A stretch of 59,633 nt of DNA from Candidatus Helarchaeota archaeon (GCA_029838215.1 JALGVI010000004.1:1-59633); one strand, 5' to 3'; shown: positions 1 through 50,656, numbered from the stretch's first letter. Numbers and translations are program-made. The notes: generated by a model from the letters alone, not told the origin.

Positions 1-246
1 TTGGATTGCAGGAGCTGGCCTTTAGTCTGGGATTATCATGAAAACTCTAAGAAATTAGTGATATTTTTAGGTGAATGTGCGTTAGAAAAAATATTACTTG
101 ATGATCGAGCCGTGCTAGAAAGCATGAAAAAGATGGTCATTCAGGAAGTCGGCTGGTTCACGGCTGGAGAGCGAAAAGTATTCACGTCTTTCGAAAAAAA
201 TGAATCGGTTAAAAAGATTGATGAACTTGAAATGTCATATGAATGA
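1..246 (+). CDS. 5'-truncated CDS, possibly the C-terminal part of a YkgJ-family cysteine-cluster protein
   Basis: Open from base 1 to TGA at 244-246. Begins LDCRSWP, resembling the RPxxCRx[YW]P motif of YkgJ/UPF0153 proteins. Confidence 0.4.
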   Translation: MDCRSWPLVWDYHENSKKLVIFLGECALEKILLDDRAVLESMKKMVIQEVGWFTAGERKVFTSFEKNESVKKIDELEMSYE

Positions 247-252
247 GATCTC

Positions 253-952
253 TCAGAAAAAACGTTGTAAATCATTTTTAGTAATTCGGCCATCATGAAG
301 AGCGGTGGCAATTAAAACTCCGGAAACGCCGTAATTCTCAACTTGTAGAATGTCATCAATCGTGCGAACTCCTCCTCCTGTTATCACGGCTACTTCATGT
401 TTTTGGATCAGATCTTTCACGTCTTCAAGATATCGTGTGGCAATCCCTTCACTTGAACCCACCCGTGCAAGGTCAAGGATGATGAACTCTGAGATTTAAC
501 TGAGGACTTTTTGATAGTATCTTCCCTTCGAATAAATCAATGCTTAGAATGGTCTGTTCAGGCGTGAGAAGAGTCATGTAATCATCGATTTGAGACAACG
601 ATTGAAGTGTTTCCAAAGCAATGATTATCTTGTGAACTTTGGATTTTTTTACGAGTTCAACTTGTTCTTTGTTTTTAATTCCAACGTCAACCATAACTTG
701 CAAATCCGTTTCTTTGATGATTTTTGAAAGATAATCGAGGTTGAAGTTTCTTCCCATTATTGCATCCAAATCTGCGACATATAGTTCTTTAGTTCCCAGT
801 TTTTGAAAAACTGCCGCAACCTCAACGGGATCTGTTGATGTTGTCAGCACGCCACGAATTGGTTCGTATTTATCTCGCTCGCCTTTTTTGCCGTGAACCA
901 CCAACTTCTTATTCTTGATGGCCATGACGTCAATCACGGGAATTATGCGCAA
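253..952 (-). pseudogene. HisA/HisF-related TIM-barrel protein, split by a frameshift near 495-499
   Basis: Frame A (952-497) reads MRIIPVIDV...LYVADLDAI...SIDL. Frame B (495-253) reads ISEFIILDLARVGSSEG...GGGVR...GVLIATALHDG. These are the two halves of one family member in different frames. Confidence 0.75.
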
Positions 953-34355: not shown

Positions 34356-35435
34356 TTGCACGAGAAACATCTAGAAAGGCTTTTAAAAAAGTCGGGCATT
34401 CCATATATTAGTGAGGCAGCAAAATTTTTGGATCACATTTATTCAAATCCTGATAAAATTCCCAAATTAATCACCAATAACACGGTTGAAAAAGTTTTAA
34501 AATTGGATCGCATAAAATCATCGAAAATTCTAAGTTCTCTTGCAAAATCCGGTTTTATAATTAAAAATATTAAAAAAAATGAATATAGTCCATTTTCGCT
34601 GGCGAAATTTGAATTGATTTGCCTGAAAAGAGTCATGGATGAAAGTAACGTTCAATTATCTTCCTTGAATTCTTTTTTTAACAAGAGTTATAGAATCTTT
34701 TTTTGTGAGAAACTGGGAATAAATACGTTTTTTAATCGGCTCTTGGCTCTATATCCGACTTTTTCTCCAAGTGAAAATCTTTACATCGAAGCATATCTTT
34801 CAGAATTTGCTTTTTCGATCCCTTATGAGAAACATACTCCTCCTTTACAGAAAATAATCGAGCAGATTGTTACGAAAAAGATTTTTAATCTGACACATGA
34901 GCGATATCTTGCCTTGAAAAAACACATAGCACGTATAAAATCTCAGGGCTCCAATAAGGGAACTGTATACTATATCATTCCCATAATGGGCTTTAAGCGA
35001 TTTTGTCTTCAAGCTCGTGACTTCTTAAGTCCTGATATATCCGATTTTTATATCAAGTTATTATCGCTGTTGAAGGATGGGCTAAAGGAACATGAAGAAG
35101 ATATCAAGAATTCCATTTTATTACCTATTATAGTCACGGATCGTGAACAATTCAACAATTTGCAGATGATTTGCAATCCTCATGTCTTTCAATTTTATTC
35201 CGATCATTATATTCAATTGAGTGCAAAGTCTGTTCTCTATTGCTATGGACAGGATCACGCCCGAAACATTGCACAAAGTTACATGCAGTTATTTGAAAGC
35301 CTTGTATCAAAAATAAGCGATGAAATTCAGCCAAAATCCAATCCTTTACTGAAAGCAAATATTGGAGAATTGCTTTTTGATTTTTCCATTCAACAGATAG
35401 ATAAAGAACTCAAGGCGACCAAGAAGATGTCATAA
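34356..35435 (+). CDS. Putative TrmB-like regulator (N-terminal wHTH plus C-terminal effector-like domain)
   Basis: VEKVLKLDRIKSSKILSSLAKSGFI wHTH pattern. The C-terminus ...YCYGQDHARNIAQSYMQLFE resembles TrmB sensor-domain ends. Divergent from ilvD. Confidence 0.5.
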   Translation: MHEKHLERLLKKSGIPYISEAAKFLDHIYSNPDKIPKLITNNTVEKVLKLDRIKSSKILSSLAKSGFIIKNIKKNEYSPFSLAKFELICLKRVMDESNVQLSSLNSFFNKSYRIFFCEKLGINTFFNRLLALYPTFSPSENLYIEAYLSEFAFSIPYEKHTPPLQKIIEQIVTKKIFNLTHERYLALKKHIARIKSQGSNKGTVYYIIPIMGFKRFCLQARDFLSPDISDFYIKLLSLLKDGLKEHEEDIKNSILLPIIVTDREQFNNLQMICNPHVFQFYSDHYIQLSAKSVLYCYGQDHARNIAQSYMQLFESLVSKISDEIQPKSNPLLKANIGELLFDFSIQQIDKELKATKKMS

Positions 35436-36314
35436 AGACCTGACAATATGACCATTCTGCAAGCTTTGTAAGTGGTAATTTCTCCAAACGACCATGCTAT
35501 GAATTAGTTTTTCTTTTAAGTCCTTGTCGACTTGTTTGGCTTGAAGATTGCTAATCCATTCCGAAATATTACCCAAAACGATTGAGTATGGGTTTTTTGA
35601 GAAGATAGAGTGTTTTAATTTGATGATGGCATCATATATTTTATGGTAGTCGTCATTTAGTATAACGCGTCCGAGATTTGTAAACCCTGCTTCAACAGTG
35701 TTGTATGTCTGAAGTTCAAACCTTCTACACACCTGATTTTTTTCATAAAAATTAAGAAGATTCGCAAAAATAAGGTCGATATTTATGTTTTTCAGTGCAG
35801 ATGTCTCGTAGAATGCGGCATCAAGAGATTTAGCGAATTCCCTGCCTTCATCCTGTTCAACTTCTCTTTCATAAGGTCGACCCGTTTTCGGGTTTATTTG
35901 ACCCGACTCGGGCAAATCAACCTTGTTGCCTGCGATGATTAATGGTTTAGTGCCGATATATTCTTGAAATTCGCAGACCCAATTCTCAAGATCGAGAAAA
36001 GTCAGCCTGTTGGTGATATCATAAACGAGAATTACTCCGTGAGCCCCTTCATAATATTGCGTGCGAAAAATTCTGAATCTTTCTTGTCCTGCAATGTCCC
36101 ACAATTGTATTGCATATAAATTTCCGTTAACACTGATTTTCCTCACGCCAAAATTGACACCAATTGTCATTTGGTAACCGCAACTGGGAAAACCTTCACA
36201 GAAACTGCTTGTAATGCCTGTCTTGCCGACAAATCCGTCTCCTATTATTATGAATTTGACGAATTTCTTAACAGGCATATTTTTGTCGAGTAATTTGTAC
36301 GGAAACTCATTCAT
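35430..36314 (-). CDS. Rab-like small GTPase with a C-terminal helical extension
   Basis: G1 GDGFVGKT, G2 TIGVNF, G3 WDIAGQE, G4 NKVD and G5 ETSAL. RabF-like motifs IGVNF, IQLW, RFRIF, YYEGA and LVYDIT. Confidence 0.93.
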   Translation of the reverse strand: MNEFPYKLLDKNMPVKKFVKFIIIGDGFVGKTGITSSFCEGFPSCGYQMTIGVNFGVRKISVNGNLYAIQLWDIAGQERFRIFRTQYYEGAHGVILVYDITNRLTFLDLENWVCEFQEYIGTKPLIIAGNKVDLPESGQINPKTGRPYEREVEQDEGREFAKSLDAAFYETSALKNINIDLIFANLLNFYEKNQVCRRFELQTYNTVEAGFTNLGRVILNDDYHKIYDAIIKLKHSIFSKNPYSIVLGNISEWISNLQAKQVDKDLKEKLIHSMVVWRNYHLQSLQNGHIVRSL

Positions 36315-40164: not shown

Positions 40165-41364
40165 ATGATAGCTGTGGTTCAAATAAAAAGCCTCATTCTC
40201 AAAGAATTTGGACGTGTTAAATCCGACAAACGTTCTTTAATCATGCTGGTTCTCCTTCCGCTCGTTACTATAATTATTTTTGGTTTATCTACCGGTGGGG
40301 GACCTCAAATGACATTTAATGTTTCTCTCATAACAAATGATTATATCGGAGCGACTAGTCCTTCGAATTATACTTATGATAGTACTCTTATTGATGCCTT
40401 TCAGAACTCTTCATCATCTGATTTGATGTTTTCGCTTGTTGTCGTCTCCGTGTTCAATTCTACATCCACTTCTGAATATGCTCAACATTTAGCCGTTGCT
40501 AAGAATCAGATGAACCTTGGTCTCATTGATGCAATAGTAATAATACCGGAGAATTTTTCCGAGGATTTTGGAGCTGATAATGATACGATATTGGAGTGTG
40601 TTGTGGATGCTTCACAGACACAATATGCGGCAGAGAATTTCCAGACCGTGCTTCAATTACCAATAATGTATTTTCGGATGGAAACAGAGCACACGCAAGG
40701 AGCCATAATTTTTCTTCCATATCTTGAATTTGATGTTCCTTTAAGCTATAGCCAATTATTTAATTACATGGCATCAATGATTCTTCCTATTGCTTTATTG
40801 GGCACCACCATGAATCTCACGGCATTGTGTATCGTAACTGAAGGTCCCTTGCCCAGAATGTTAATAACTCCTGCTGGAAAGCGTGATGTTATTTTAAGCA
40901 AGTTAATTACCTACACCACTTTGATGATAATGCAAGCAACAATCGTGTTTATCACGGCTTCCGCCTTTAATTTGTATAGTGCGGGACCGCTTTTTGATTT
41001 ATTCATTTCTTTGATATTAGTTGGATTTGCAGGGACTTCAATCGGCTTATTGATTTCTGCAGTTACTCGAACGGAGCACCAAGCAAATCAGATTTATATT
41101 TTCGCTTTTATCTTATTTACTCTTCTCGGAGGATTATTCATTTCTGTTGATGCTCTGCCATTGCCGTTCCAGATCGTGATTTATTGTTTACCAATGGCAC
41201 ATTGCATGCCTCTAGTGAGTGACATCACGCTTCGTGGAATCAGCTATTTCACTCCCATGGCAAATATTAATTTATTATTTCATTCAGCCAGTCTTCTACT
41301 AATAAGCGGAGTTTGTTTTGTAGCTGCATTGGTGGCTTATCGAATTAAAAAGACGGAGGTATAA
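40165..41364 (+). CDS. ABC-2 type exporter permease 1 (large ectodomain after TM1)
   Basis: ILKEFGRVKSDKRSLIMLVLLP, one TM, an ectodomain rich in NxS/T sites, then 5 TMs with LGGLF...LP...LPMAH. Confidence 0.92.
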   Translation: MIAVVQIKSLILKEFGRVKSDKRSLIMLVLLPLVTIIIFGLSTGGGPQMTFNVSLITNDYIGATSPSNYTYDSTLIDAFQNSSSSDLMFSLVVVSVFNSTSTSEYAQHLAVAKNQMNLGLIDAIVIIPENFSEDFGADNDTILECVVDASQTQYAAENFQTVLQLPIMYFRMETEHTQGAIIFLPYLEFDVPLSYSQLFNYMASMILPIALLGTTMNLTALCIVTEGPLPRMLITPAGKRDVILSKLITYTTLMIMQATIVFITASAFNLYSAGPLFDLFISLILVGFAGTSIGLLISAVTRTEHQANQIYIFAFILFTLLGGLFISVDALPLPFQIVIYCLPMAHCMPLVSDITLRGISYFTPMANINLLFHSASLLLISGVCFVAALVAYRIKKTEV

Positions 41365-41365
41365 A

Positions 41366-42577
41366 ATGAAGAATTCATTCAGGCGCATTTACGGTCTCGT
41401 TAAAAAGGAATTCCGGTTACTGTGGAGTGATAAATATGCGCTTTTGATGGCAGTTTTTCTTCCTCCTGTAATCGTAATTTTTATTGGCGTTTTGCAGGGT
41501 ATATCAATACCGCCTCCCGTAATATGTGCTGTTGTCATAAATGATTCTCAACAATTTGGCGTGAATTCTTCATATATTTCATTAGAAGACAATTATACTT
41601 CTCCATTTTTGACCGCTTTGCGAAGTTTTCCAACGAGCCTTTCCATCACAGATACTGCAGGTAATGAGTTAATTTTTAACAGTTCATCAAATCCGTATGC
41701 GATGTATACTGCATATCAGCTTTTGTTATTACAACAGGTTGACGTTCTCATTGTTATTCCCCCGGAATTTTCGGAAACCATTATTTACGAAATTCTCTTT
41801 CCGAGGATTGAGATTGCCCCCGATGCTTCTGACGTGGCAAAAGTTCAACAGTTCATTAACGTTTTCAATGCCATTGGTGAGAAATTCGTGAAAGATAATG
41901 ATCTGGGACAGCAAATTCTTTATGAATTCGAAGAAGAATACGCGCCGCCCCAATCCATTCCTCCATTCTCATTTAATATTGCTCTTACATATTTAACATC
42001 GATGGCATTTCCATTCATGGTCATGGGTTTTACCATGATCCTGACAATTTTAGTGATTGTTACCGAGGCACCCATACCGCGTTTAATAATAACGCCTGCA
42101 AAAAAAGAAGAGATTCTCATCTCTAAGTATATCACTTATACTCTGGTGTCTCTTGCCCAAACCACGTTAATCTTTGTTTCCACCATGGCATGTCAAGTAT
42201 ACGTTCCCGTTCAATTGCTCCCCGATCTATTTTTGGGGTTATTCATCACGGGAATTTACGGCGTGACTCTAGGGATACTCATATCAACAATTTCCACTTC
42301 AAAAATGCAAGCAAATCAATTATTCTTTTTTATTTTCTTAACGATTCTTCTATTGAGTGGCATGATCATTCCCATTGAATCTCTATGGTTGCCATTACAG
42401 ATTGTTGCATACGGTCTTCCAATGGCTTGGGCTTCACCCATTTTCACGAATATAATATTTAAAAGTCAAGGATTTCTCTATACCTGGCCAAATTATCTGG
42501 TAATCCTGCTCATATCATTAATATTCATGGCCGTGACTTTAATTTGGTTCAGGTTTATGAAAAAAATGGAGGTCTGA
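41366..42577 (+). CDS. ABC-2 type exporter permease 2
   Basis: VKKEFRLLWSDK, an ectodomain, LLSGMIIPIESL and LPMAW. Starts 1 nt after the permease 1 stop. Confidence 0.92.
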   Translation: MKNSFRRIYGLVKKEFRLLWSDKYALLMAVFLPPVIVIFIGVLQGISIPPPVICAVVINDSQQFGVNSSYISLEDNYTSPFLTALRSFPTSLSITDTAGNELIFNSSSNPYAMYTAYQLLLLQQVDVLIVIPPEFSETIIYEILFPRIEIAPDASDVAKVQQFINVFNAIGEKFVKDNDLGQQILYEFEEEYAPPQSIPPFSFNIALTYLTSMAFPFMVMGFTMILTILVIVTEAPIPRLIITPAKKEEILISKYITYTLVSLAQTTLIFVSTMACQVYVPVQLLPDLFLGLFITGIYGVTLGILISTISTSKMQANQLFFFIFLTILLLSGMIIPIESLWLPLQIVAYGLPMAWASPIFTNIIFKSQGFLYTWPNYLVILLISLIFMAVTLIWFRFMKKMEV

Positions 42578-42578
42578 G

Positions 42579-43613
42579 ATGAGTTCGGAAGACGTAATTG
42601 AAGTCCAGAATCTCAACGTGTATTTCAAGGACAAACACGTCTTGAAGGATATTTCTTTCTCTTGCAGGAAGGGAGAAATATTGGGAATGATGGGTCTCTC
42701 TGGTGCCGGAAAGAGCACGTTGGTAAGGGTCCTAACCTGCCAACTTCGGCACGCTAAAGGTGAGGTGAAAGTAGGAGGGCATGATCCTAGAAAAAATCCT
42801 GAGAAAGTCCTACAGCTTATTGGCTACGTGCCTCAACTTGAAGAAGTCAATCTTTATTATGAATTTTCTGCCATTCAAAACGTCCTGATTTTTGCAGATT
42901 TGTATGGTATCGCAAGGGATGAAGCTCTAAAACTCACGAAAAAATATTTTCAAATTTTAGAAATTCCTGAGGATGTCTGGAATAAAAAAGTCAAGCGCCT
43001 CTCAGGTGGGGAGAAAAAACGTGTTTCAATTACAATGGGTCTAATCAATTCACCCGAAATTTTATTTCTTGATGAACCAACAACAGGCGTGGACTCTTCA
43101 AAACGCTTTGACATGATAAATTATTTGAAGAAATTGAACACAGAAACGGGCACCACGATGATCATTGTCACGCACGATTTAGAAACGGCAAATATTTGTG
43201 ATCGAACCATGATTTTAGTCGATGGTAAAATCATTGATTTTGACCATCCTGATAAGCTCATTCAAAAATTGCCTAGCAATGGAAAAATTCTGCGAATAAC
43301 CGTTCCTCATTTAAATGATCAAATCATCAAAAAAATTGATCAGGTTCCTGAGGTTTTCTTTCACATGCGGAAAGGTAAAGAGGTTCTTGAATTATACATG
43401 GATGATATTAATAAGAATTCGGCTAAATTGATAAAATTCTTGAATGATAATCATATTTCAATTCAAAAAATTACTCGAGATCGCGCAAAATTTAAGGAAT
43501 ACTTTCAGCTCCGGATAGAAAATCCAATACATGCCATAGATGGTGATTCAGCTCTAATTCAATCAGATCGCCAATTTTCTGAAATAAGAAAAAAAGGAGG
43601 TAAGATTTCATGA
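42579..43613 (+). CDS. ABC transporter ATP-binding protein (intact)
   Basis: GLSGAGKST, YVPQ, LSGGEKKR, LFLDEPTTG and THD, plus a C-terminal ACT-like extension. Confidence 0.95.
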   Translation: MSSEDVIEVQNLNVYFKDKHVLKDISFSCRKGEILGMMGLSGAGKSTLVRVLTCQLRHAKGEVKVGGHDPRKNPEKVLQLIGYVPQLEEVNLYYEFSAIQNVLIFADLYGIARDEALKLTKKYFQILEIPEDVWNKKVKRLSGGEKKRVSITMGLINSPEILFLDEPTTGVDSSKRFDMINYLKKLNTETGTTMIIVTHDLETANICDRTMILVDGKIIDFDHPDKLIQKLPSNGKILRITVPHLNDQIIKKIDQVPEVFFHMRKGKEVLELYMDDINKNSAKLIKFLNDNHISIQKITRDRAKFKEYFQLRIENPIHAIDGDSALIQSDRQFSEIRKKGGKIS

Positions 43614-46600
43614 AGCGTAAGACCAAAAAACGTTTAATTACAGCTACGATCTTTGGTCTATTACTAGGTACTCCCATCATTGCAATGGCAGGGTTTGGAT
43701 TTATTGCAAGTGTTCCCATTCCCATTTTACCTGACAAGCTCATTGAATATTTAGGTTTTTTTGATGAATTTAACATCAATTATACCTTGGGTCATCAAAA
43801 TGTTGATGGTATTTTTGTAGAACCCTCAATTGAAATTAATTATTATGCACAGGAAATATTAACTAATTTGAGCTCGCCCGTAACAGAAGAAGTAATGATG
43901 CTTTTTACCCGATTAATGTACATGATTTCTCATAAAAATGTTGATGGTGGTTTTTCTGAAGTCGGTGGTGCAGGAGATGTCATAACCACGTACCGAGTAT
44001 TGAGATTCCTTTATCTTGTCAATTCATCTTTTCTTAAAGACCCATCTTTTCAGCAATATTTTAATGATACAATCACCTTTCTAAATGACTCCGCATATTT
44101 GGGAGGTTATGCAATCAGACCGAATAGTCAAGTCGTTACGGTTGAAACGACCTACTGCGCTGCAATGTCACTGGTGATTTTGAATCAATCCGATTTGATT
44201 AATAATGTTACCCTTGGTGGATTTTTAACTTTATGCCATAATAATAGCATTACTGATGGTGGGTTTTATACTTCTATTCTTTCAAATGACACGAATGTGA
44301 AATCAACACATTACGGGATGGAACTGGCAAAAACCTTTGGTATTTTATTAATAGGGAATGATTCCAAGTTTATTGATGACTGCCAGAATCCCGACGGAGG
44401 ATTTGGAAACATGCGTAATGCCACCTCCGATGTTGAGGCGACTTATCACGGAATAATGGGTCTAAGACAGGATGGACTTCTTCCATCGAATTTAACAGGA
44501 GCCCAAGCATTTCTCAAAGCAGCACAAAATCAAGATGGCGGATTTGGAAATCATCCAAGAGACATTTCGGAATTTAGTGCGGCTTTTCACGTCATATTGG
44601 GACTAAATGCCACGGGTGATTCATTAACCGTAAGTAATGAGTCTTCTTTTTATTCGTGGTCCCTTCAGAATGAAGGTAATAATGGTTTATTCGGATACAA
44701 ATCGGTTCGTGCCAATTATTGGGCGATGTCAGCATTAATTTCTGCTGAAGCACAGGGTCGTGTTTCGCAAGGTCAGAAAAGAGAAATTGCAAGTTTTATA
44801 CAGCAATGTCAAAATACCGATGGAGGTTTTGGAACGCGTGATGGGACCATCAATTCAACTCTTTTTGACACTTTTTGTGCAATTCACGTGATTAAAATGC
44901 TTGAATCATCCGGACGTGGAATATATTTATCTTTATATGTCAACGTTTCAAGTGCCACTACCTATTTAAAATCTTTTCAAAATCACGATGGTGGCTTTAT
45001 GATGGGTGCGAACATAGATCTTTTCTGGGATTACATGACTGACGATTTTCAAAATCAATTTGAAGACACCATCAACGAAAATATTTCCTTGAGCATGTCT
45101 AGTTACTGGGCTTTCTCTTCGCTTTTAAGGTTAGGTCAATCTCCTGATGATTCACTCGGATTTACCTTATGGATGAAATCCTTGCAAAATATCGATGGTG
45201 GATTTGGAGCCACGACAGGTCTTTGGTCAGAGGTCGTTTCAACATATTATGTCACAAAAACGTTTAGTTTAATAAGTGAGAACATAAATTCAATTCCTTC
45301 TGCGATTGAATATTTGAAAAATGCCCAGAATCCTGATGGTGGCTTTAACCTAATTTCCATGCCAACTGGAATGGAATTCGGTGAAATTTCTTCAACTTAT
45401 TTATTTGTAACTTATTGTGCTGCAGAGGGTCTTTACCTGCTTGGTTCTCAACCCGGAACTACGATTTTTGACATTGATGCATTATATCAAGGCGCAAGTT
45501 GGGTGTATTCGTGTGCACCACTTTCGATGGAATTATTAATGGGCGGATTTGGCGACATTCCGTATTTTGGAGCGGATATACGTAATATTGAGATGGGCAT
45601 TACACTAATGGATGACATGACCGTGAATCAGGGTTTAATGACATGGGCAAAAGGTTGGCTTTTGTTATTATTTTCACTTCTCATTGTTGAAATTGCCTTC
45701 ATAGCCGCTTGGTATGGTTATAAAGCCGTGAAAATTGTCTTTCGTAAATTCAGACCCATAAAAGAGCTTGCATTTCATGAAATTTTAAAAGATCGGGTGG
45801 CGATAAAGTGTGAAGGTGTTACCATAAAAGCGGGCTCTAAAGTCATCATAGATAACGTTTCGTTGAAATTAAATCATGGTGAGATCTTGGGTGTTATCGG
45901 AGAAAGCGGTGCCGGGAAATCTACCTTTATTAAATCATTGATAGGCACGATGTATTATAGCGGTTCTATTTCAATTTATGAACTTGATAGCAAGAAGGAC
46001 AAGCAAAGATTGAAATCCATTTACGGATATGTTCCACAGGATTTGAGTAAAATTTATGAGAGTTTTACTGTTTTAGAGAATCTCATGCATTTTGGGAAGG
46101 AATATGGTTTAGATGAAGAGGAGATCCTGAGACGTTCTCGAAAAATTTTGATGGACTTGGGGATCTTAGAAAAAGAAAATGAATTGGTTAAGAATTTGTC
46201 AGGTGGTCAGAAACGTCGTGCATCTATCGCCGTTGGCATGATTCACCAGCCTGTAATCTGCATTCTCGACGAACCCACTTCGGGTCTTGATCCCGTCGTG
46301 CGCGATCAATTGTGGTATGCTCTTCTTAAAGTTAATGAAGAATATAAGACGACGTTGGTTGTCATAACGCATTACCCTGAAGATAGCCGATTTTGTGATA
46401 AAATTGCAATTTTTGGTCGACAACGAGGGCTTATAGATTTTGGAAGGCCACAAGAGCTCTATCAGAAATTGCCTGGAAGAGGTAGAGCACTTGATGTCGA
46501 ATTGAAAAAGGGTCAAACGGATGTCTTGCAGAAACTGCGAGGAATATCACGATTTGAACACGTCTTGGAAATCAAGAGAAATGAAATATATCGCATTTTA

Positions 46601-46738
46601 ACGGATTTAACATCTGCAGAAGTCTTGCTTGCTATCGAAAAGCAATTTGGATCTGGTTTTGTAGAGAACGTTGAACAGAAAGAAACGATCATGGCTGATT
46701 TGTTCCGAATGAAATCCTTGGAGGTTAAACTTGAATGA
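43610..46738 (+). CDS. Fusion: signal/TM, extracellular prenyltransferase-squalene-oxidase-repeat barrel, TM, intact ABC ATPase
   Basis: Seven [QK]NxDGGF repeats plus variants. TM GWLLLLFSLLIVEIAFIAAWYGY followed by RKFRPIK. Then GESGAGKST, YVPQ, LSGGQKRR, ILDEPTSG and THY. ATGA overlaps at both ends. Confidence 0.9.
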   Translation: MKRKTKKRLITATIFGLLLGTPIIAMAGFGFIASVPIPILPDKLIEYLGFFDEFNINYTLGHQNVDGIFVEPSIEINYYAQEILTNLSSPVTEEVMMLFTRLMYMISHKNVDGGFSEVGGAGDVITTYRVLRFLYLVNSSFLKDPSFQQYFNDTITFLNDSAYLGGYAIRPNSQVVTVETTYCAAMSLVILNQSDLINNVTLGGFLTLCHNNSITDGGFYTSILSNDTNVKSTHYGMELAKTFGILLIGNDSKFIDDCQNPDGGFGNMRNATSDVEATYHGIMGLRQDGLLPSNLTGAQAFLKAAQNQDGGFGNHPRDISEFSAAFHVILGLNATGDSLTVSNESSFYSWSLQNEGNNGLFGYKSVRANYWAMSALISAEAQGRVSQGQKREIASFIQQCQNTDGGFGTRDGTINSTLFDTFCAIHVIKMLESSGRGIYLSLYVNVSSATTYLKSFQNHDGGFMMGANIDLFWDYMTDDFQNQFEDTINENISLSMSSYWAFSSLLRLGQSPDDSLGFTLWMKSLQNIDGGFGATTGLWSEVVSTYYVTKTFSLISENINSIPSAIEYLKNAQNPDGGFNLISMPTGMEFGEISSTYLFVTYCAAEGLYLLGSQPGTTIFDIDALYQGASWVYSCAPLSMELLMGGFGDIPYFGADIRNIEMGITLMDDMTVNQGLMTWAKGWLLLLFSLLIVEIAFIAAWYGYKAVKIVFRKFRPIKELAFHEILKDRVAIKCEGVTIKAGSKVIIDNVSLKLNHGEILGVIGESGAGKSTFIKSLIGTMYYSGSISIYELDSKKDKQRLKSIYGYVPQDLSKIYESFTVLENLMHFGKEYGLDEEEILRRSRKILMDLGILEKENELVKNLSGGQKRRASIAVGMIHQPVICILDEPTSGLDPVVRDQLWYALLKVNEEYKTTLVVITHYPEDSRFCDKIAIFGRQRGLIDFGRPQELYQKLPGRGRALDVELKKGQTDVLQKLRGISRFEHVLEIKRNEIYRILTDLTSAEVLLAIEKQFGSGFVENVEQKETIMADLFRMKSLEVKLE

Positions 46739-48291
46739 ATGAAGCATCTACGGAACAAATTCAAATGGACATTATTGACACGATAAAGAAACTCGAGAAC
46801 TTTTGGAATATTTATAGGGGTGGTCACGGATTAGCTGGATATCTAAAGGTCTTGGATCAGCGTTATTATGTCGAATTCATTTTCTTAAAAGATTTTAAAG
46901 AACCCTTCAAATTTTTTGGACCCGTTGAATTGCAAGAATTATTTAGTAGTTATTTTAATGAGCAGAGAAAACGCGGCTCCTTATTCAGCATTCGGGATTT
47001 CATGAGCGGAGTAATGCGCATTTTTAACAATTACTGCAATGAACATGAGAACGTTTTGAAGAATGAGTATGAGTTAATCAAGTCCAACTATCGCATCGAA
47101 AAGATTAACGACAAGATATATCACATTAAAGTGATTCTTCCATATAAAAATATTTATACTTTTACAATTTTCTTTCAAAATTATCCTTCAATTCCTGAAA
47201 TACAATTTGATGAATTGCTTTCCAATGAAATTGGACCATTTGAGAATTTCGAAATATTAAGGGAATGGAACCGTCTTCAACCTCCGAGAATCGTTGAAAT
47301 TACTAATAAAATAAAACAAATACTACTCGAGAAAATACACGCTCATCCCGGTTTTGGACTGGTAAAAGCCGATAAATTAAAGATTGATTTAAAAGAACAA
47401 ACATTCGGTTCCGTTGATTTCTTTGTATTTAAAGGAGAGACTCTTGGAATATATTGTTTAAATAACAAGTTGATTTGGAATTTTTTTAAGTTTTTGACAA
47501 GTAATGACTCATTTTCTGGCAAGATACAGTTTTTTGAACGACCCGCTAATGATAGGAATCGAATCTGCAGCATCATTGAGTCTCACGTTAACACTGAAGG
47601 TATTGAGAATTACGAACTTGAGGCAAGTCTTGATAAACAGGCCCCCGAGATTGATAAAAAAGTCAAATCGCGGTTAATTCCGCGCGTCCTCAAGGCTTGT
47701 GGGCTTATAAATCAAAAAAAGATGAAATTAAAGGATTTGACAAAAGGTCAGGAACTGCGGCATGATATAGCACTTCACGCCCTCAAGGGATATGAAGTCT
47801 TGCTTTTTTCCAATCCGGAATTGGGTTTGAACACGACCGAGGTCAAGAAATTTTTTGATTGTTTGAGAAGAGTGAACCAAGAGTTTAACATCACGATTCT
47901 TCTTCACTCTCATGAAGAATCTTTACGATCTTGCGACCGCATTTTGGTGATGGATGAAAAAGGAAGGCAAGTTGGCTTTGGAACTCTTGCCGAATTATTT
48001 CGAACATTTCCATTAGGTGAATTTGATCCCATTATAGTGGTTCAAGTTAACAAGGTAAGAGCGGGACTTATTGATGATTTAACCAAAGTTCCCGGTCTCC
48101 TTCTAATGATTGAAGAACGCAAGAATGAAAAATATCATTTATTCTTCAAAGAGAACCATGATGAAAAAATTCAAATAATATATGACAAGATTGGGGATGA
48201 TATCTTTAATCTTGAGATGAGTTCCCCAACATTGTTTGATTACTTGAGATATAGCCAACAAAGAAAACATTTCGAATCGAGAAATAATTAA
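46735..48291 (+). CDS. Fusion: tandem UBC/RWD-like (no catalytic Cys) domains plus a degenerate ABC ATPase
   Basis: YTFTIFFQNYPSIPEIQF...ILREWNRLQPPRIVEI fits the E2/RWD YPxxP motif. The NBD scaffold has lost Walker A (GIYCLNNKL), signature (LTKGQ) and Walker B (LLFSNP) residues. Confidence 0.7.
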   Translation: MNEASTEQIQMDIIDTIKKLENFWNIYRGGHGLAGYLKVLDQRYYVEFIFLKDFKEPFKFFGPVELQELFSSYFNEQRKRGSLFSIRDFMSGVMRIFNNYCNEHENVLKNEYELIKSNYRIEKINDKIYHIKVILPYKNIYTFTIFFQNYPSIPEIQFDELLSNEIGPFENFEILREWNRLQPPRIVEITNKIKQILLEKIHAHPGFGLVKADKLKIDLKEQTFGSVDFFVFKGETLGIYCLNNKLIWNFFKFLTSNDSFSGKIQFFERPANDRNRICSIIESHVNTEGIENYELEASLDKQAPEIDKKVKSRLIPRVLKACGLINQKKMKLKDLTKGQELRHDIALHALKGYEVLLFSNPELGLNTTEVKKFFDCLRRVNQEFNITILLHSHEESLRSCDRILVMDEKGRQVGFGTLAELFRTFPLGEFDPIIVVQVNKVRAGLIDDLTKVPGLLLMIEERKNEKYHLFFKENHDEKIQIIYDKIGDDIFNLEMSSPTLFDYLRYSQQRKHFESRNN

Positions 48292-48310
48292 AAATCTTGT
48301 GGGATTTTCG

Positions 48311-49183
48311 ATGATTAAGAATCTGTTCATATTACGGGAAAATGGTGAATTTCTTTATTCAAAAACATTTGCAGAAGGAGCTTACGTGGATAAGCAGATA
48401 CTCTTGGGTTTTGTAATGTCTGCAATTCACTTTTCTAAAGAAACATTCCAGGGAATTATTCGTAAGATCGATTTACCAATCGGACAGCTCGTGATTTACC
48501 GAGACACTTATACAAAACTCCTTGCCACGTGTATTGCAACTGAGAGAGATGAGTTATCGTTGGTGGAAAAGGTACTTGGAGAAATTGTAGATCAGTTTGT
48601 CGAAAGATATCAAAGCAAGTTAGACTCAATTAATATTGAATCCACTCGTGATTTCGATCTTATTGCAAAAAGGTTGGCGTCAGCAAAAATCAAACAGCGC
48701 GGCATATTGGAGATTTTGATTGGGATAGGTGTTGCTTTCGGATGTTCCATTCCTCTTATAATTCTAAGTGCTGTTGTATTAAGCATTCCCTTAATATCTC
48801 TATTTGATGAGATTTCATATTATCTTTCCTTGCCTTCACTTGGTGGTGTTCATTCTGAGCAACTTTTACCGCTTATTTTTGGCTTGTATTCTCTCCAAAT
48901 CTTTTTCGTCATTTTCCTAATTCCGATTCCTTCATTTTTAGGAGGTTATTTTGCCGGTTCAAAATGGAATGGTGCAATTTCTACTTCAGCCTTCATTGTA
49001 ACAATTCCCATCACGTGTTTCATTGGTGTAATGGCTTTTAGTGGTGAAACAGTGATTGCAATAACGGCAACTTTCATGTTCATTCTCTCTCTCGCCAGTT
49101 TGCCCCTAATGGTAATTTTTGGTATTGTTTTCGGATTTCTCGGAGGAATGCTCAAGGAAAAAAATGCTTTATTTCCGACATGA
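48311..49183 (+). CDS. Longin-domain protein with about 4 C-terminal TM helices
   Basis: MIKNLFILRENGEFLYSKTF...ILLGFVMSAIHFSKETF...LVIYRD...LLATCIA...LGEIVDQFVERY is a classic longin pattern, followed by hydrophobic segments. Confidence 0.8.
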   Translation: MIKNLFILRENGEFLYSKTFAEGAYVDKQILLGFVMSAIHFSKETFQGIIRKIDLPIGQLVIYRDTYTKLLATCIATERDELSLVEKVLGEIVDQFVERYQSKLDSINIESTRDFDLIAKRLASAKIKQRGILEILIGIGVAFGCSIPLIILSAVVLSIPLISLFDEISYYLSLPSLGGVHSEQLLPLIFGLYSLQIFFVIFLIPIPSFLGGYFAGSKWNGAISTSAFIVTIPITCFIGVMAFSGETVIAITATFMFILSLASLPLMVIFGIVFGFLGGMLKEKNALFPT

Positions 49184-49468: not shown

Positions 49469-50656
49469 ATGGAATTGCAGCTTGAAGACACGATAATTCT
49501 TATCGATACCAGTAGGAGCATGTTTCGAAAAGACTTTGATCCAAACCGGATTAGTGCCGCAAAGAAGGCAATAAAAGATTTTGTAATTTCGAAGAATCAG
49601 ATAGATGATCGCGATCAATTTGCCATCGTTACATTTTCCAGTGAAGCAAAAGTACTTTTGGAGATGACTTCTTACATTGATGACGTTTTGGATGCAATTG
49701 ATGGTATAGAAATTGGGGGAACTTCAGGTCTTGGTGAAGGATTGGCGGTAGCACTTCAACTTATCGTGAAGGAGATTCAACAGTTAGGGGAAAAGGGCTA
49801 TCGAATGTTAATTATATCAGATGGAAAGGCGTGGGGTTCAACCATAGATCCATTACGGATGAGCAAGATTGCACAAGGATTGAAAGTTAAAATTGATTGC
49901 GTTGGTCTTTCAGAATTGGGTCTTTCTTATCGCGATTCTGTCTTAGAAAGGATTTCTTCGCAGACGGGTGGTGAATACCGAAAAATCTATGATTCAAGAA
50001 GTCTGTCAGATGCTCTTACGGAGCTTTCTTCAAAGAAAGAAATCTCGCCATCAGCCCGTAAGGCAGATTCTGCAGCTGTAGGCGCTCTTTTAGAAACAAT
50101 TGCCGAAGATCTTCTTCGCCCTGCAGATTTATCAGAAGACCAATCACACCTTGTCGACCTCTTAATTGGAAAAGAAAAAAGCAAGTGTATAATTTGTTTT
50201 CAAGATATTTGCCCTATTTGTCATGGTCCTTTTTATTCTTGTGGTCGTTATTGCCCGAATTGCAAGAGTCCAATGCATCTTCATTGTGCTGCTGAGTGGG
50301 CATCCGCATCAAAAGCCGTATCAGGTGATAATGTTTTTCGTTGCACGCGTTGTTATTTCCTCTTGAAGGTTCCTGCTTCATATAGTAAGATAAAGACGTT
50401 AAAGGGAACGCATCATTATTCAGCTACAGAGCTTCAGGAAGACGATACTGCGTTATTTGTTAAAGTAAATGATTTTTCGGATGAATTGGCTGCTGCAGTT
50501 GATCCCATTTGCCATTCTATTTTTGACAACGAAGAAAATGTATATCAATGTACGAATTGTGGCACGTTTTATCATGCAGAATGTTTGGATAAGTGGCTTG
50601 AGGACAGGGCGTCTGGTGGAGCATGTCGGGTCTGCGGTAAAAAAATCACGCTTTAA
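49469..50656 (+). CDS. vWA-domain protein with two C-terminal RING/PHD-like zinc fingers
   Basis: MIDAS DTSRS...GT...SDG. Finger 1 is CIIC...CPNC...HLHC..W...CTRC. Finger 2 is DPIC...CTNC...HAEC..W...CRVC. Confidence 0.85.
   Translation: MELQLEDTIILIDTSRSMFRKDFDPNRISAAKKAIKDFVISKNQIDDRDQFAIVTFSSEAKVLLEMTSYIDDVLDAIDGIEIGGTSGLGEGLAVALQLIVKEIQQLGEKGYRMLIISDGKAWGSTIDPLRMSKIAQGLKVKIDCVGLSELGLSYRDSVLERISSQTGGEYRKIYDSRSLSDALTELSSKKEISPSARKADSAAVGALLETIAEDLLRPADLSEDQSHLVDLLIGKEKSKCIICFQDICPICHGPFYSCGRYCPNCKSPMHLHCAAEWASASKAVSGDNVFRCTRCYFLLKVPASYSKIKTLKGTHHYSATELQEDDTALFVKVNDFSDELAAAVDPICHSIFDNEENVYQCTNCGTFYHAECLDKWLEDRASGGACRVCGKKITL

Follow-up and report, generated by a model that had tools for sequence, protein, structure and literature searches.

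The DNA analyzed here is a stretch of 59,633 nucleotides from a Candidatus Helarchaeota archaeon (GCA_029838215.1 JALGVI010000004.1:1-59633), hereafter the window, which carries on its plus strand a gene fusion embedded in a cassette of six genes. The fusion gene encodes a protein of 1042 amino acids (aa) in which an N-terminal anchor, approximately 630 aa of prenyltransferase-type repeats, one transmembrane (TM) helix and an intact ATP-binding cassette (ABC) ATPase follow one another, and its neighbors encode two ABC-2 permeases, a free ABC ATPase, a degenerate ATPase and a further membrane protein. The fusion had been singled out in an earlier note that read the protein as a single-pass receptor carrying one barrel outside the cell.

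Parts of the fusion protein

43610..46738, plus strand, fusion gene (P0001), an uninterrupted open reading frame of 1042 aa
43634..43732, plus strand, predicted N-terminal hydrophobic anchor (aa 9-41, from hydropathy), with KRKTKKR just before it
45626..45781, plus strand, predicted long continuous helix comprising stalk, TM core and cytoplasmic extension (aa 673-724, from model helix 635-685 and hydropathy)
45782..46738, plus strand, ABC ATPase with C-terminal domain (aa 725-1042; PF00005, invariant motifs)

Pfam assigns three stretches of the protein to PF00432 (Prenyltrans, E 1e-34) and aa 748-891 to PF00005 (ABC_tran, E 3e-27), values that place both the repeats and the ATPase far beyond chance; squalene-cyclase families are matched weakly. 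The seven exact [QK]NxDGGF motifs counted in the earlier note are indeed present, at aa 109, 259, 306, 401, 457, 526, and 573, together with degenerate copies at aa 63, 161, 213, 354, and 641. The ATPase possesses a complete set of motifs, namely Walker A (GESGAGKST), Q-loop (Q810), LSGGQ, Walker B (D887/E888), D-loop (SGLD) and H921, all invariant in 47 homologues. The joining of repeats, TM helix and intact ATPase in one chain is thereby confirmed.

A hydropathy scan finds two hydrophobic segments only, at about aa 9-41 and 680-705, which correspond to the N-terminal anchor and to the TM helix ahead of RKFRPIK that had been described before. The second one, the TM core, holds Glu694 and is followed by KIVFRKFRPIK. 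Anchor and TM helix form a hairpin and not a single-pass layout, and the gene encodes a subunit in a six-gene ABC-2 operon, so that the notion of a single-pass receptor misleads. Two residues of this region are conserved in their own right: Glu694 (45689-45691), inside the TM helix, is kept in 70% of homologues, and Trp683, at the outer edge of the membrane, in 98%.

The placement of the repeat domain outside the cell and of the ATPase inside, as the earlier note had it, is supported by the positive-inside rule and by the density of glycosylation sequons, of which the ectodomain contains 17 and the ATPase 2 (2.6 vs 0.6 per 100 aa).

Predicted fold of the ectodomain

43733..43792, plus strand, predicted first helix of toroid B (aa 42-61), after which toroid A is inserted
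43793..44701, plus strand, predicted toroid A, a sequon-rich and probably exposed ring (aa ~62-364, from single-toroid and 8paj alignments)
44702..45625, plus strand, predicted main part of toroid B, RabGGTase-beta-like (aa 365-672)

The ectodomain was modeled with AlphaFold2 over aa 40-725 from a 47-sequence alignment (predicted local distance difference test score, pLDDT, 88.8; predicted template modeling score 0.86). RabGGTase beta (4ehm_B) superimposes on this model with a VIA Z of 31.3 and a root-mean-square deviation (rmsd) of 2.4 over 281 aa, spanning model residues 8..633. Prenyltransferase beta subunits overall match toroid B with Z 28-31 and rmsd 2.4-3.0 over approximately 280 aa, and profile matches of the ectodomain to RabGGTase beta reach E 9e-26. 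Single-toroid structures align to model residues 5/8..633, yet only 281-293 residues are paired, and other single-toroid models map to residues 30-320 (one with a TM-score of 0.76) or to 5-633. The span of RabGGTase beta and the mapping of the single toroids together indicate that toroid B consists of the first helix and the C-terminal half of the ectodomain, and that toroid A is inserted between them.

Squalene-hopene cyclase (SHC) 1gsz_A aligns over 480 aa of model residues 8..633 with Z 19.3 and rmsd 7.5, the latter value implying that the two rings are oriented differently from those of SHC. Furthermore, 1w6k gives Z 17.7, the SHC 8paj gives Z 17.6 on model residues 51-324, GH63, GH78, and similar (alpha/alpha)6 enzymes give Z 15-18, and the TED domains of C3/C4/C5 give Z 15-16. 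According to the model, the ectodomain is made of two nested alpha/alpha toroids with about 12 helical hairpins, and its chain topology is that of class II terpene cyclases. These alignments cover the comparison with GGTase-II beta and SHC that the earlier note had called for, and its single barrel gives way to two nested, SHC-like toroids. From toroid B, model helix 635-685 (aa 674-724) runs unbroken across the membrane into the cytoplasm.

Sequons are distributed unevenly over the two rings. Toroid A of this protein has 13 of them, the family densities per 100 aa are 3.3 for toroid A, 1.5 for toroid B, and 0.9 for the ATPase, and the density is higher in toroid A than in toroid B in 47 of 47 homologues. 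This pattern fits an outside location in which toroid A is exposed and toroid B partly covered.

As a side observation on toroids of this kind, some archaeal single-toroid repeat proteins weakly match PF05817, the N-terminal domain of ribophorin II (P0131, E 1.5e-6; 22-31% of members in two ESM Atlas clusters). Ribophorin II is a subunit of the eukaryotic oligosaccharyltransferase, and these matches hint that its luminal domain may be related to extracellular toroids.

Loss of the catalytic sites

The ectodomain does not preserve the catalytic residues of its enzymatic relatives. Across the 47 homologues, no ectodomain column keeps a His at 70% or more, and neither a DxDD nor a CGEQ-type thioester motif occurs in any ectodomain (0 of 47 in both cases); PF07678 is matched weakly by 7 of the 47. 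The only conserved Cys residues of the ectodomain, C400 and C635, sit just ahead of GG(F) repeat motifs, a position at which the repeats of RabGGTase beta also carry a Cys. The earlier statement that the zinc motif and DxDD are lacking and that the domain is probably non-catalytic consequently extends to the whole set of homologues.

The most conserved part of the ectodomain lies in the last repeat:

45554..45586, plus strand, top-conserved ectodomain motif D649-x-P-x-F-G-x-D-x-R-N659

Within it, D649, F653, G654, and N659 are invariant, and the matching segment of RabGGTase beta is GGFADRPGDMVDPFH. The family consensus of the last repeat, TGGxGDxPxFGGDLRN, pairs with the RabGGTase beta segment TGGFADRPGDMVDPFH, and places the invariant Asn659 at the His290-equivalent zinc-ligand position of prenyltransferase beta subunits. 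This His-to-Asn mapping was derived from motif comparison and from residue counting along the structural alignment, anchored at its end (model 633 with chain 303), which give the same result; the HMMER profile alignments with RabGGTase beta are out of register by repeats, and a phmmer search with aa 565-680 returned nothing significant. The former active-site mouth is lined by an invariant polar cluster composed of D649, D656, R658, and N659.

A partner for a prenyltransferase activity was not found either. No PPTA alpha subunit (PF01239) exceeds the Pfam cut-off in the window's own genome, which is 94% complete, and none is encoded in the cassette; sub-threshold PF01239 hits occur in control genomes too. 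Because the catalytic motifs and the alpha partner are both missing, the ectodomain is, as far as its sequence tells, a non-enzymatic relative of prenyltransferases and cyclases.

Distribution of the fusion

A word-indexed search of 5.8 billion proteins retrieved full-length homologues, over 120 in number and about 1000-1075 aa long (E <1e-160), all of which combine PF00432 with PF00005. Their named sources are Loki-, Hel-, Thor-, Hod-, Hermod- and Promethearchaeota. When aa 1-720 were searched with HMMER against 1.84 billion cluster representatives, every complete ectodomain match belonged to a protein of about 1040-1100 aa; shorter matches of full coverage seem to be fragments, and the remaining ones covered single repeats only. 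Within the phylum, 57 of 301 genomes contain a match at E <1e-30, most of them in the window's own class (family f4: 49 of 92), and full-length copies are rare in other classes. The survey scored three candidates per genome, so that its negatives are soft. All complete hits in the phylum are open frames of about 1020-1100 aa, and internal stops are absent from every match. The window's own genome has one copy of the fusion gene.

Two further prenyltransferase-repeat proteins of this genome are not fused to an ATPase (G000:C130:49126-49950 and G000:C157:20781-21587, in frames of 392 aa and 1493 aa). A homologue labeled 'Candidatus Deferrimicrobium' (P0012) was considered as a bacterial copy and rejected: its contig (L028) bears archaeal-looking eIF-1A and ELP3-type genes in addition to the same cassette, and the bacterial label is probably a binning error.

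The architecture is accordingly widespread in Asgard archaea, and no characterization of it was found. No description turned up in the literature searched, including an Asgard transporter survey, an Asgard structural-modeling study, and the asCOG preprint, and in none of the solved ABC structures that matched is an ATPase linked covalently, across the membrane, to a large domain outside the cell.

A cassette encoding a heteromeric ABC-2 pump

40165..41364, plus strand, ABC-2 permease 1 (399 aa; PF12698, E 1e-23)
40294-40758, plus strand, permease 1 ectodomain between TM1 and TM2 (aa 44-198)
41366..42577, plus strand, ABC-2 permease 2 (403 aa; PF12698, E 9e-20)
41495-41974, plus strand, permease 2 ectodomain between TM1 and TM2 (aa 44-203)
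42579..43613, plus strand, free DrrA-type ABC ATPase with intact motifs (344 aa; PF00005, E 1e-28; TIGR01188, E 9e-58)
46735..48291, plus strand, 518-aa partner with an N-terminal region of ~200 aa and a degenerate ATPase domain, its start codon overlapping the fusion stop
48299..49183, plus strand, 294-aa membrane protein, the usual last gene of the cassette (BLAST match in 16 of 23 loci)

The order in the window is permease 1, permease 2, free ATPase, fusion, 518-aa protein, and 294-aa membrane protein. The genes overlap or nearly abut, and an ATGA overlap of 4 nucleotides marks each end of the fusion gene, the upstream one joining the stop codon of the free ATPase to the fusion ATG. Since it is encoded with overlapping start and stop codons among a free ATPase, permeases and a pseudo-ATPase, the fusion protein is a transporter subunit. 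On the strength of the encoded motifs, the pump consists of two permeases and two active ATPases, the fusion protein being one of the two motors.

The six-gene cassette is also present in 23 loci retrieved from other Asgard genomes. Its order is rearranged in three of them (L009, L010, and L028), where the 518-aa gene is divergent and the permeases lie downstream. The 518-aa partner is found in all 23 loci extending that far. Its ATPase domain lacks Walker A, Q-loop, signature, and Walker B, and keeps the C-terminal domain; the N-terminal 200 aa or so match no family, and a protein atlas search gave no usable hit. The 294-aa membrane protein likewise belongs to no Pfam family and retrieves only unnamed Asgard clusters from the protein atlas. 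Genes outside the cassette vary between loci.

Orthologues of the free ATPase are interrupted at the same place in three genomes (L015:3431-3463, L018:3395-3419, and L023:7206-7235), between Walker B (DEPTT) and the D-loop (GVD), by about 31-34 nucleotides that shift the frame and contain a hairpin. The insertion looks like a mini-intron; the window's own copy has no interruption. Two eukaryote-like genes flank the cassette in the window:

35430-36314, minus strand, Ras/Rab-like small GTPase with a C-terminal extension
49469-50656, plus strand, vWA protein with RING-type fingers (PF13519, PF13639, Ssl1-like)

Relatives of the pump and predicted docking of toroid B

The only solved sequence relatives of both permeases are chains of Tribolium ABCH-9C (TcABCH-9C), with E 1e-6 and 1.5e-5, the match of permease 1 (E 1e-6) covering aa 6-368 and hence including its ectodomain. 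An AlphaFold2 model of permease 2 (pLDDT 79) also has TcABCH-9C as its best fold match (Foldseek E 3e-11, TMq 0.57-0.58), followed by ABCG5/8, ABCA7/4/1, and NosY. As for the fused ATPase, its best solved relatives are ABCA3/4/1/7 (E 3e-49 to 5e-44). ABCH-9C is described, in a passage of PMC12578276 that cites Chen et al. 2025, as exporting ceramide and lipophilic compounds through the mechanism of a squeeze pump.

The ectodomains of permeases 1 and 2 were submitted to complex prediction together with the toroids (aa 40-690), using 22-row alignments drawn from the same loci in the same order. The complex scored 0.65 (0.64, 0.65, and 0.68 in separate runs) and the best of three controls 0.01; the mark of 0.65 is reached by 58 of 80 solved complexes and by 2 of 110 mismatched pairs. 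Contacts agreed between runs to at least 61%, and the pLDDT of the partners was at least 84. Because no similar complex has been solved, the predictor is unlikely to have passed by reproducing a known structure. Confident contacts involve toroid B only, through one set of loops:

44984..45373, plus strand, toroid B loops with predicted permease contacts (aa 459-588, around QNxDGGF at 457, 526, and 573)

The contacting residues of toroid B are aa 459-461, 487, 493, 517-530, 536-539, 560-567, and 585-588. Permease 2, the main partner, contributes aa 59-62, 106-117, 128-133, and 147-151, and permease 1 contributes aa 168 and 184-192, the latter in the conserved PYLEFDVP just before TM2. Interface residues are conserved above average in all three chains (permutation p ~0.01, 0.007, and 0.0003, the toroid having ~0.0003). 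Judged from the zinc-ligand positions of the enzymes, the contact loops would lie on the active-site side of the toroid B ring. The prediction gives model support, short of proof, to a docking of toroid B on both permease ectodomains.

Discussion

The reading that we favor, and to which we give about even chances, is that the fusion protein supplies the second ATPase to a heteromeric type V exporter (ABC-2, ABCH/ABCA-like) equipped with a tethered extracellular domain that accepts a lipid or hands it off. Among the sequences searched, a heteromeric type V pump of this design was found only in Asgard archaea. We infer its cargo, its direction of transport and the acceptor role by analogy with its relatives. 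The isoprenoid- or lipid-binding cavity that the earlier note had attributed to the repeats would fit the ABCH/ABCA-like relatives of the pump.

The proposed machine would pair two unlike permeases, whose ectodomains measure about 155 aa each, with a free and a fused ATPase, both active. On the cell exterior, a double toroid that is glycosylated, acidic and without catalytic function would be linked to the fused ATPase by a continuous helix of about 50 residues. Toroid B would sit at the membrane, held by the N-terminal anchor and the TM helix, with its mouth, which corresponds to the active-site side of the enzymes, docked on the two permease ectodomains; toroid A, heavily glycosylated, would face away. 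The permeases might then press out of the membrane a lipophilic lipid, probably of isoprenoid type, and the toroid funnel might take it up and either shield it or pass it on. The head group may be gripped by the polar cluster D649/D656/R658/N659, located at the former zinc site.

Several points weigh against this proposal. Inward flippases, ABCA4 for one, exist among the type V ABC proteins, so that transport might run in either direction, and the lipid cargo is proposed from the relatives of the pump alone, the genes flanking the cassette differing between loci and giving no hint of it. The model does not account for the pseudo-ATPase or the last membrane protein. The docking was predicted with excised ectodomains and with our own 22-row alignments, for which the calibration is only rough, and the conservation of the interface is partly due to the structural Gly and Asp residues of the repeat motif. 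Finally, glycosylation of the toroids, and of toroid A especially, is predicted from sequons alone, and the sequon counts come from related sequences that are not independent.

Comparison with known systems helps to situate the Asgard pump. Insect ABCH-9C and the eukaryotic ABCA/ABCG lipid exporters have the same permease fold, in which a small ectodomain separates TM1 from TM2; these relatives have lipid substrates, from which a lipid substrate is inferred by analogy for the Asgard pump. Unlike them, the Asgard pump is built of separate subunits, one ATPase bearing a TM helix and a 630-aa double toroid, and its cassette adds a dead ATPase and a further membrane protein; none of the matched solved type V structures has a toroid ectodomain. 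The prenyltransferase beta subunits (RabGGTase, GGTase-III, FTase, and GGTase-I; PF00432) resemble the ectodomain in repeat sequence, in toroid fold, and in the GGFxDxP...D scaffold found in the last repeat of toroid B. They differ from it in that toroid B lacks the zinc triad and has Asn in place of His, is predicted to be extracellular and glycosylated, and accommodates a second toroid after its first helix. Class II terpene cyclases (squalene-hopene and oxidosqualene), which are membrane-proximal lipid-handling proteins, likewise have two nested alpha/alpha toroids, whereas the Asgard ectodomain is devoid of DxDD, adopts another inter-domain geometry, and has two TM anchors and a fused ATPase. 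In function only, LptC of LptB2FGC and MlaD of MlaFEDB, extracytoplasmic accessory subunits with a single TM segment, and NosD of NosDFY may be seen as analogues, being anchored outside domains that dock on an ABC transporter and receive or pass cargo. Their folds (beta-jellyroll, MCE, and beta-helix, respectively) are unrelated to the Asgard toroids, and none of the three is covalently joined to an ATPase.

MacB/LolCDE, FtsEX, and NosDFY work as mechanotransducers, and the fusion protein could belong to a machine of this type, in which no substrate crosses the membrane and ATP-driven motion of the ATPase and of the permease ectodomains, transmitted by the rigid stalk-TM helix and the docking surface, makes the toroids work outside, for instance by extracting or releasing a lipid-anchored molecule or by remodeling the surface. 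The unbroken helix of about 50 residues by which the model connects toroid B and the ATPase's first strand would suit such a lever, as would the predicted docking of the toroids on the ectodomains, and the permease's fold matches include NosY, a component of NosDFY. However, the permeases are nearest to true lipid exporters (ABCH-9C, ABCG, and ABCA) and not to the MacB or FtsX types, and the cassette encodes no target for work outside the cell; we consider this mechanism unlikely.

The toroids could also be a tethered receptor for uptake or inward flipping, catching an external isoprenoid-type compound (a quinone, a polyprenol, or a partner-derived lipid) and feeding it to the permeases, in the manner of a substrate-binding protein fused to a transporter or of the inward flippase ABCA4. 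Prenyltransferase-type funnels of enzymes do bind isoprenoids, ABCA4 counts among the nearest relatives of the ATPase, and the predicted complex has the mouth of the toroid turned toward the ectodomains. Nevertheless, we know of no type V importer that has a binding protein. Moreover, to the extent known, export is the task of both the prokaryotic ABC-2/DrrA-type systems and ABCH (established knowledge; PMC12578276), and uptake is in our opinion quite improbable.

Even less probable by a clear measure is an ecto-enzyme, whether a terpene cyclase, a prenyltransferase, or an (alpha/alpha)6 glycosidase or lyase, for which speak the fold common to these enzymes (including the GH63 and GH78 matches) and the invariant polar cluster at the former active-site mouth, but against which stand the absence of zinc triad, DxDD, and conserved His from the homologues, glycosidase Z scores far under those of the prenyltransferase beta subunits, and a location outside the cell without a supply of prenyl diphosphate or ATP. 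As for the possibility, raised in the earlier note, of an assembly chimera or a mis-joined gene, its likelihood is practically nil: the contigs from two public metagenome runs with small shares (0.10 and 0.08) were short pieces, none spanning 45600-45800, but independent assemblies carry the same uninterrupted architecture, in more than 100 clusters and in the 57 searched genomes, and the complete ectodomain matches among the 1.8 billion cluster representatives are all of about 1040-1100 aa.

The exporter with its tethered acceptor can be carried one step further, to a scheme that we put forward as speculative and rather unlikely as a whole. The cassette would encode an Asgard-specific lipid-export machine that hands isoprenoid lipids or polyprenyl-linked molecules to an SHC-like double toroid, and eukaryote-like cytoplasmic modules, namely the pseudo-ATPase with its N-terminal region and the last membrane protein, would be in control. 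If true, such a machine could feed lipid to protrusions, vesicles, or syntrophic partners, and it would offer, among prokaryotes, an equivalent to the large ectodomains that eukaryotic ABCA transporters bear.

The docking model designates specific residues and is for that reason directly testable. The design is conserved, in a fixed multi-gene cassette, across several Asgard lineages, Hodarchaeota-labeled records included. The exporter that we favor would reveal a new way of coupling an ABC motor to an acceptor domain outside the cell, and could show how, in those prokaryotes that are most closely related to eukaryotes, archaeal isoprenoid lipids or lipid-linked molecules exit the membrane.

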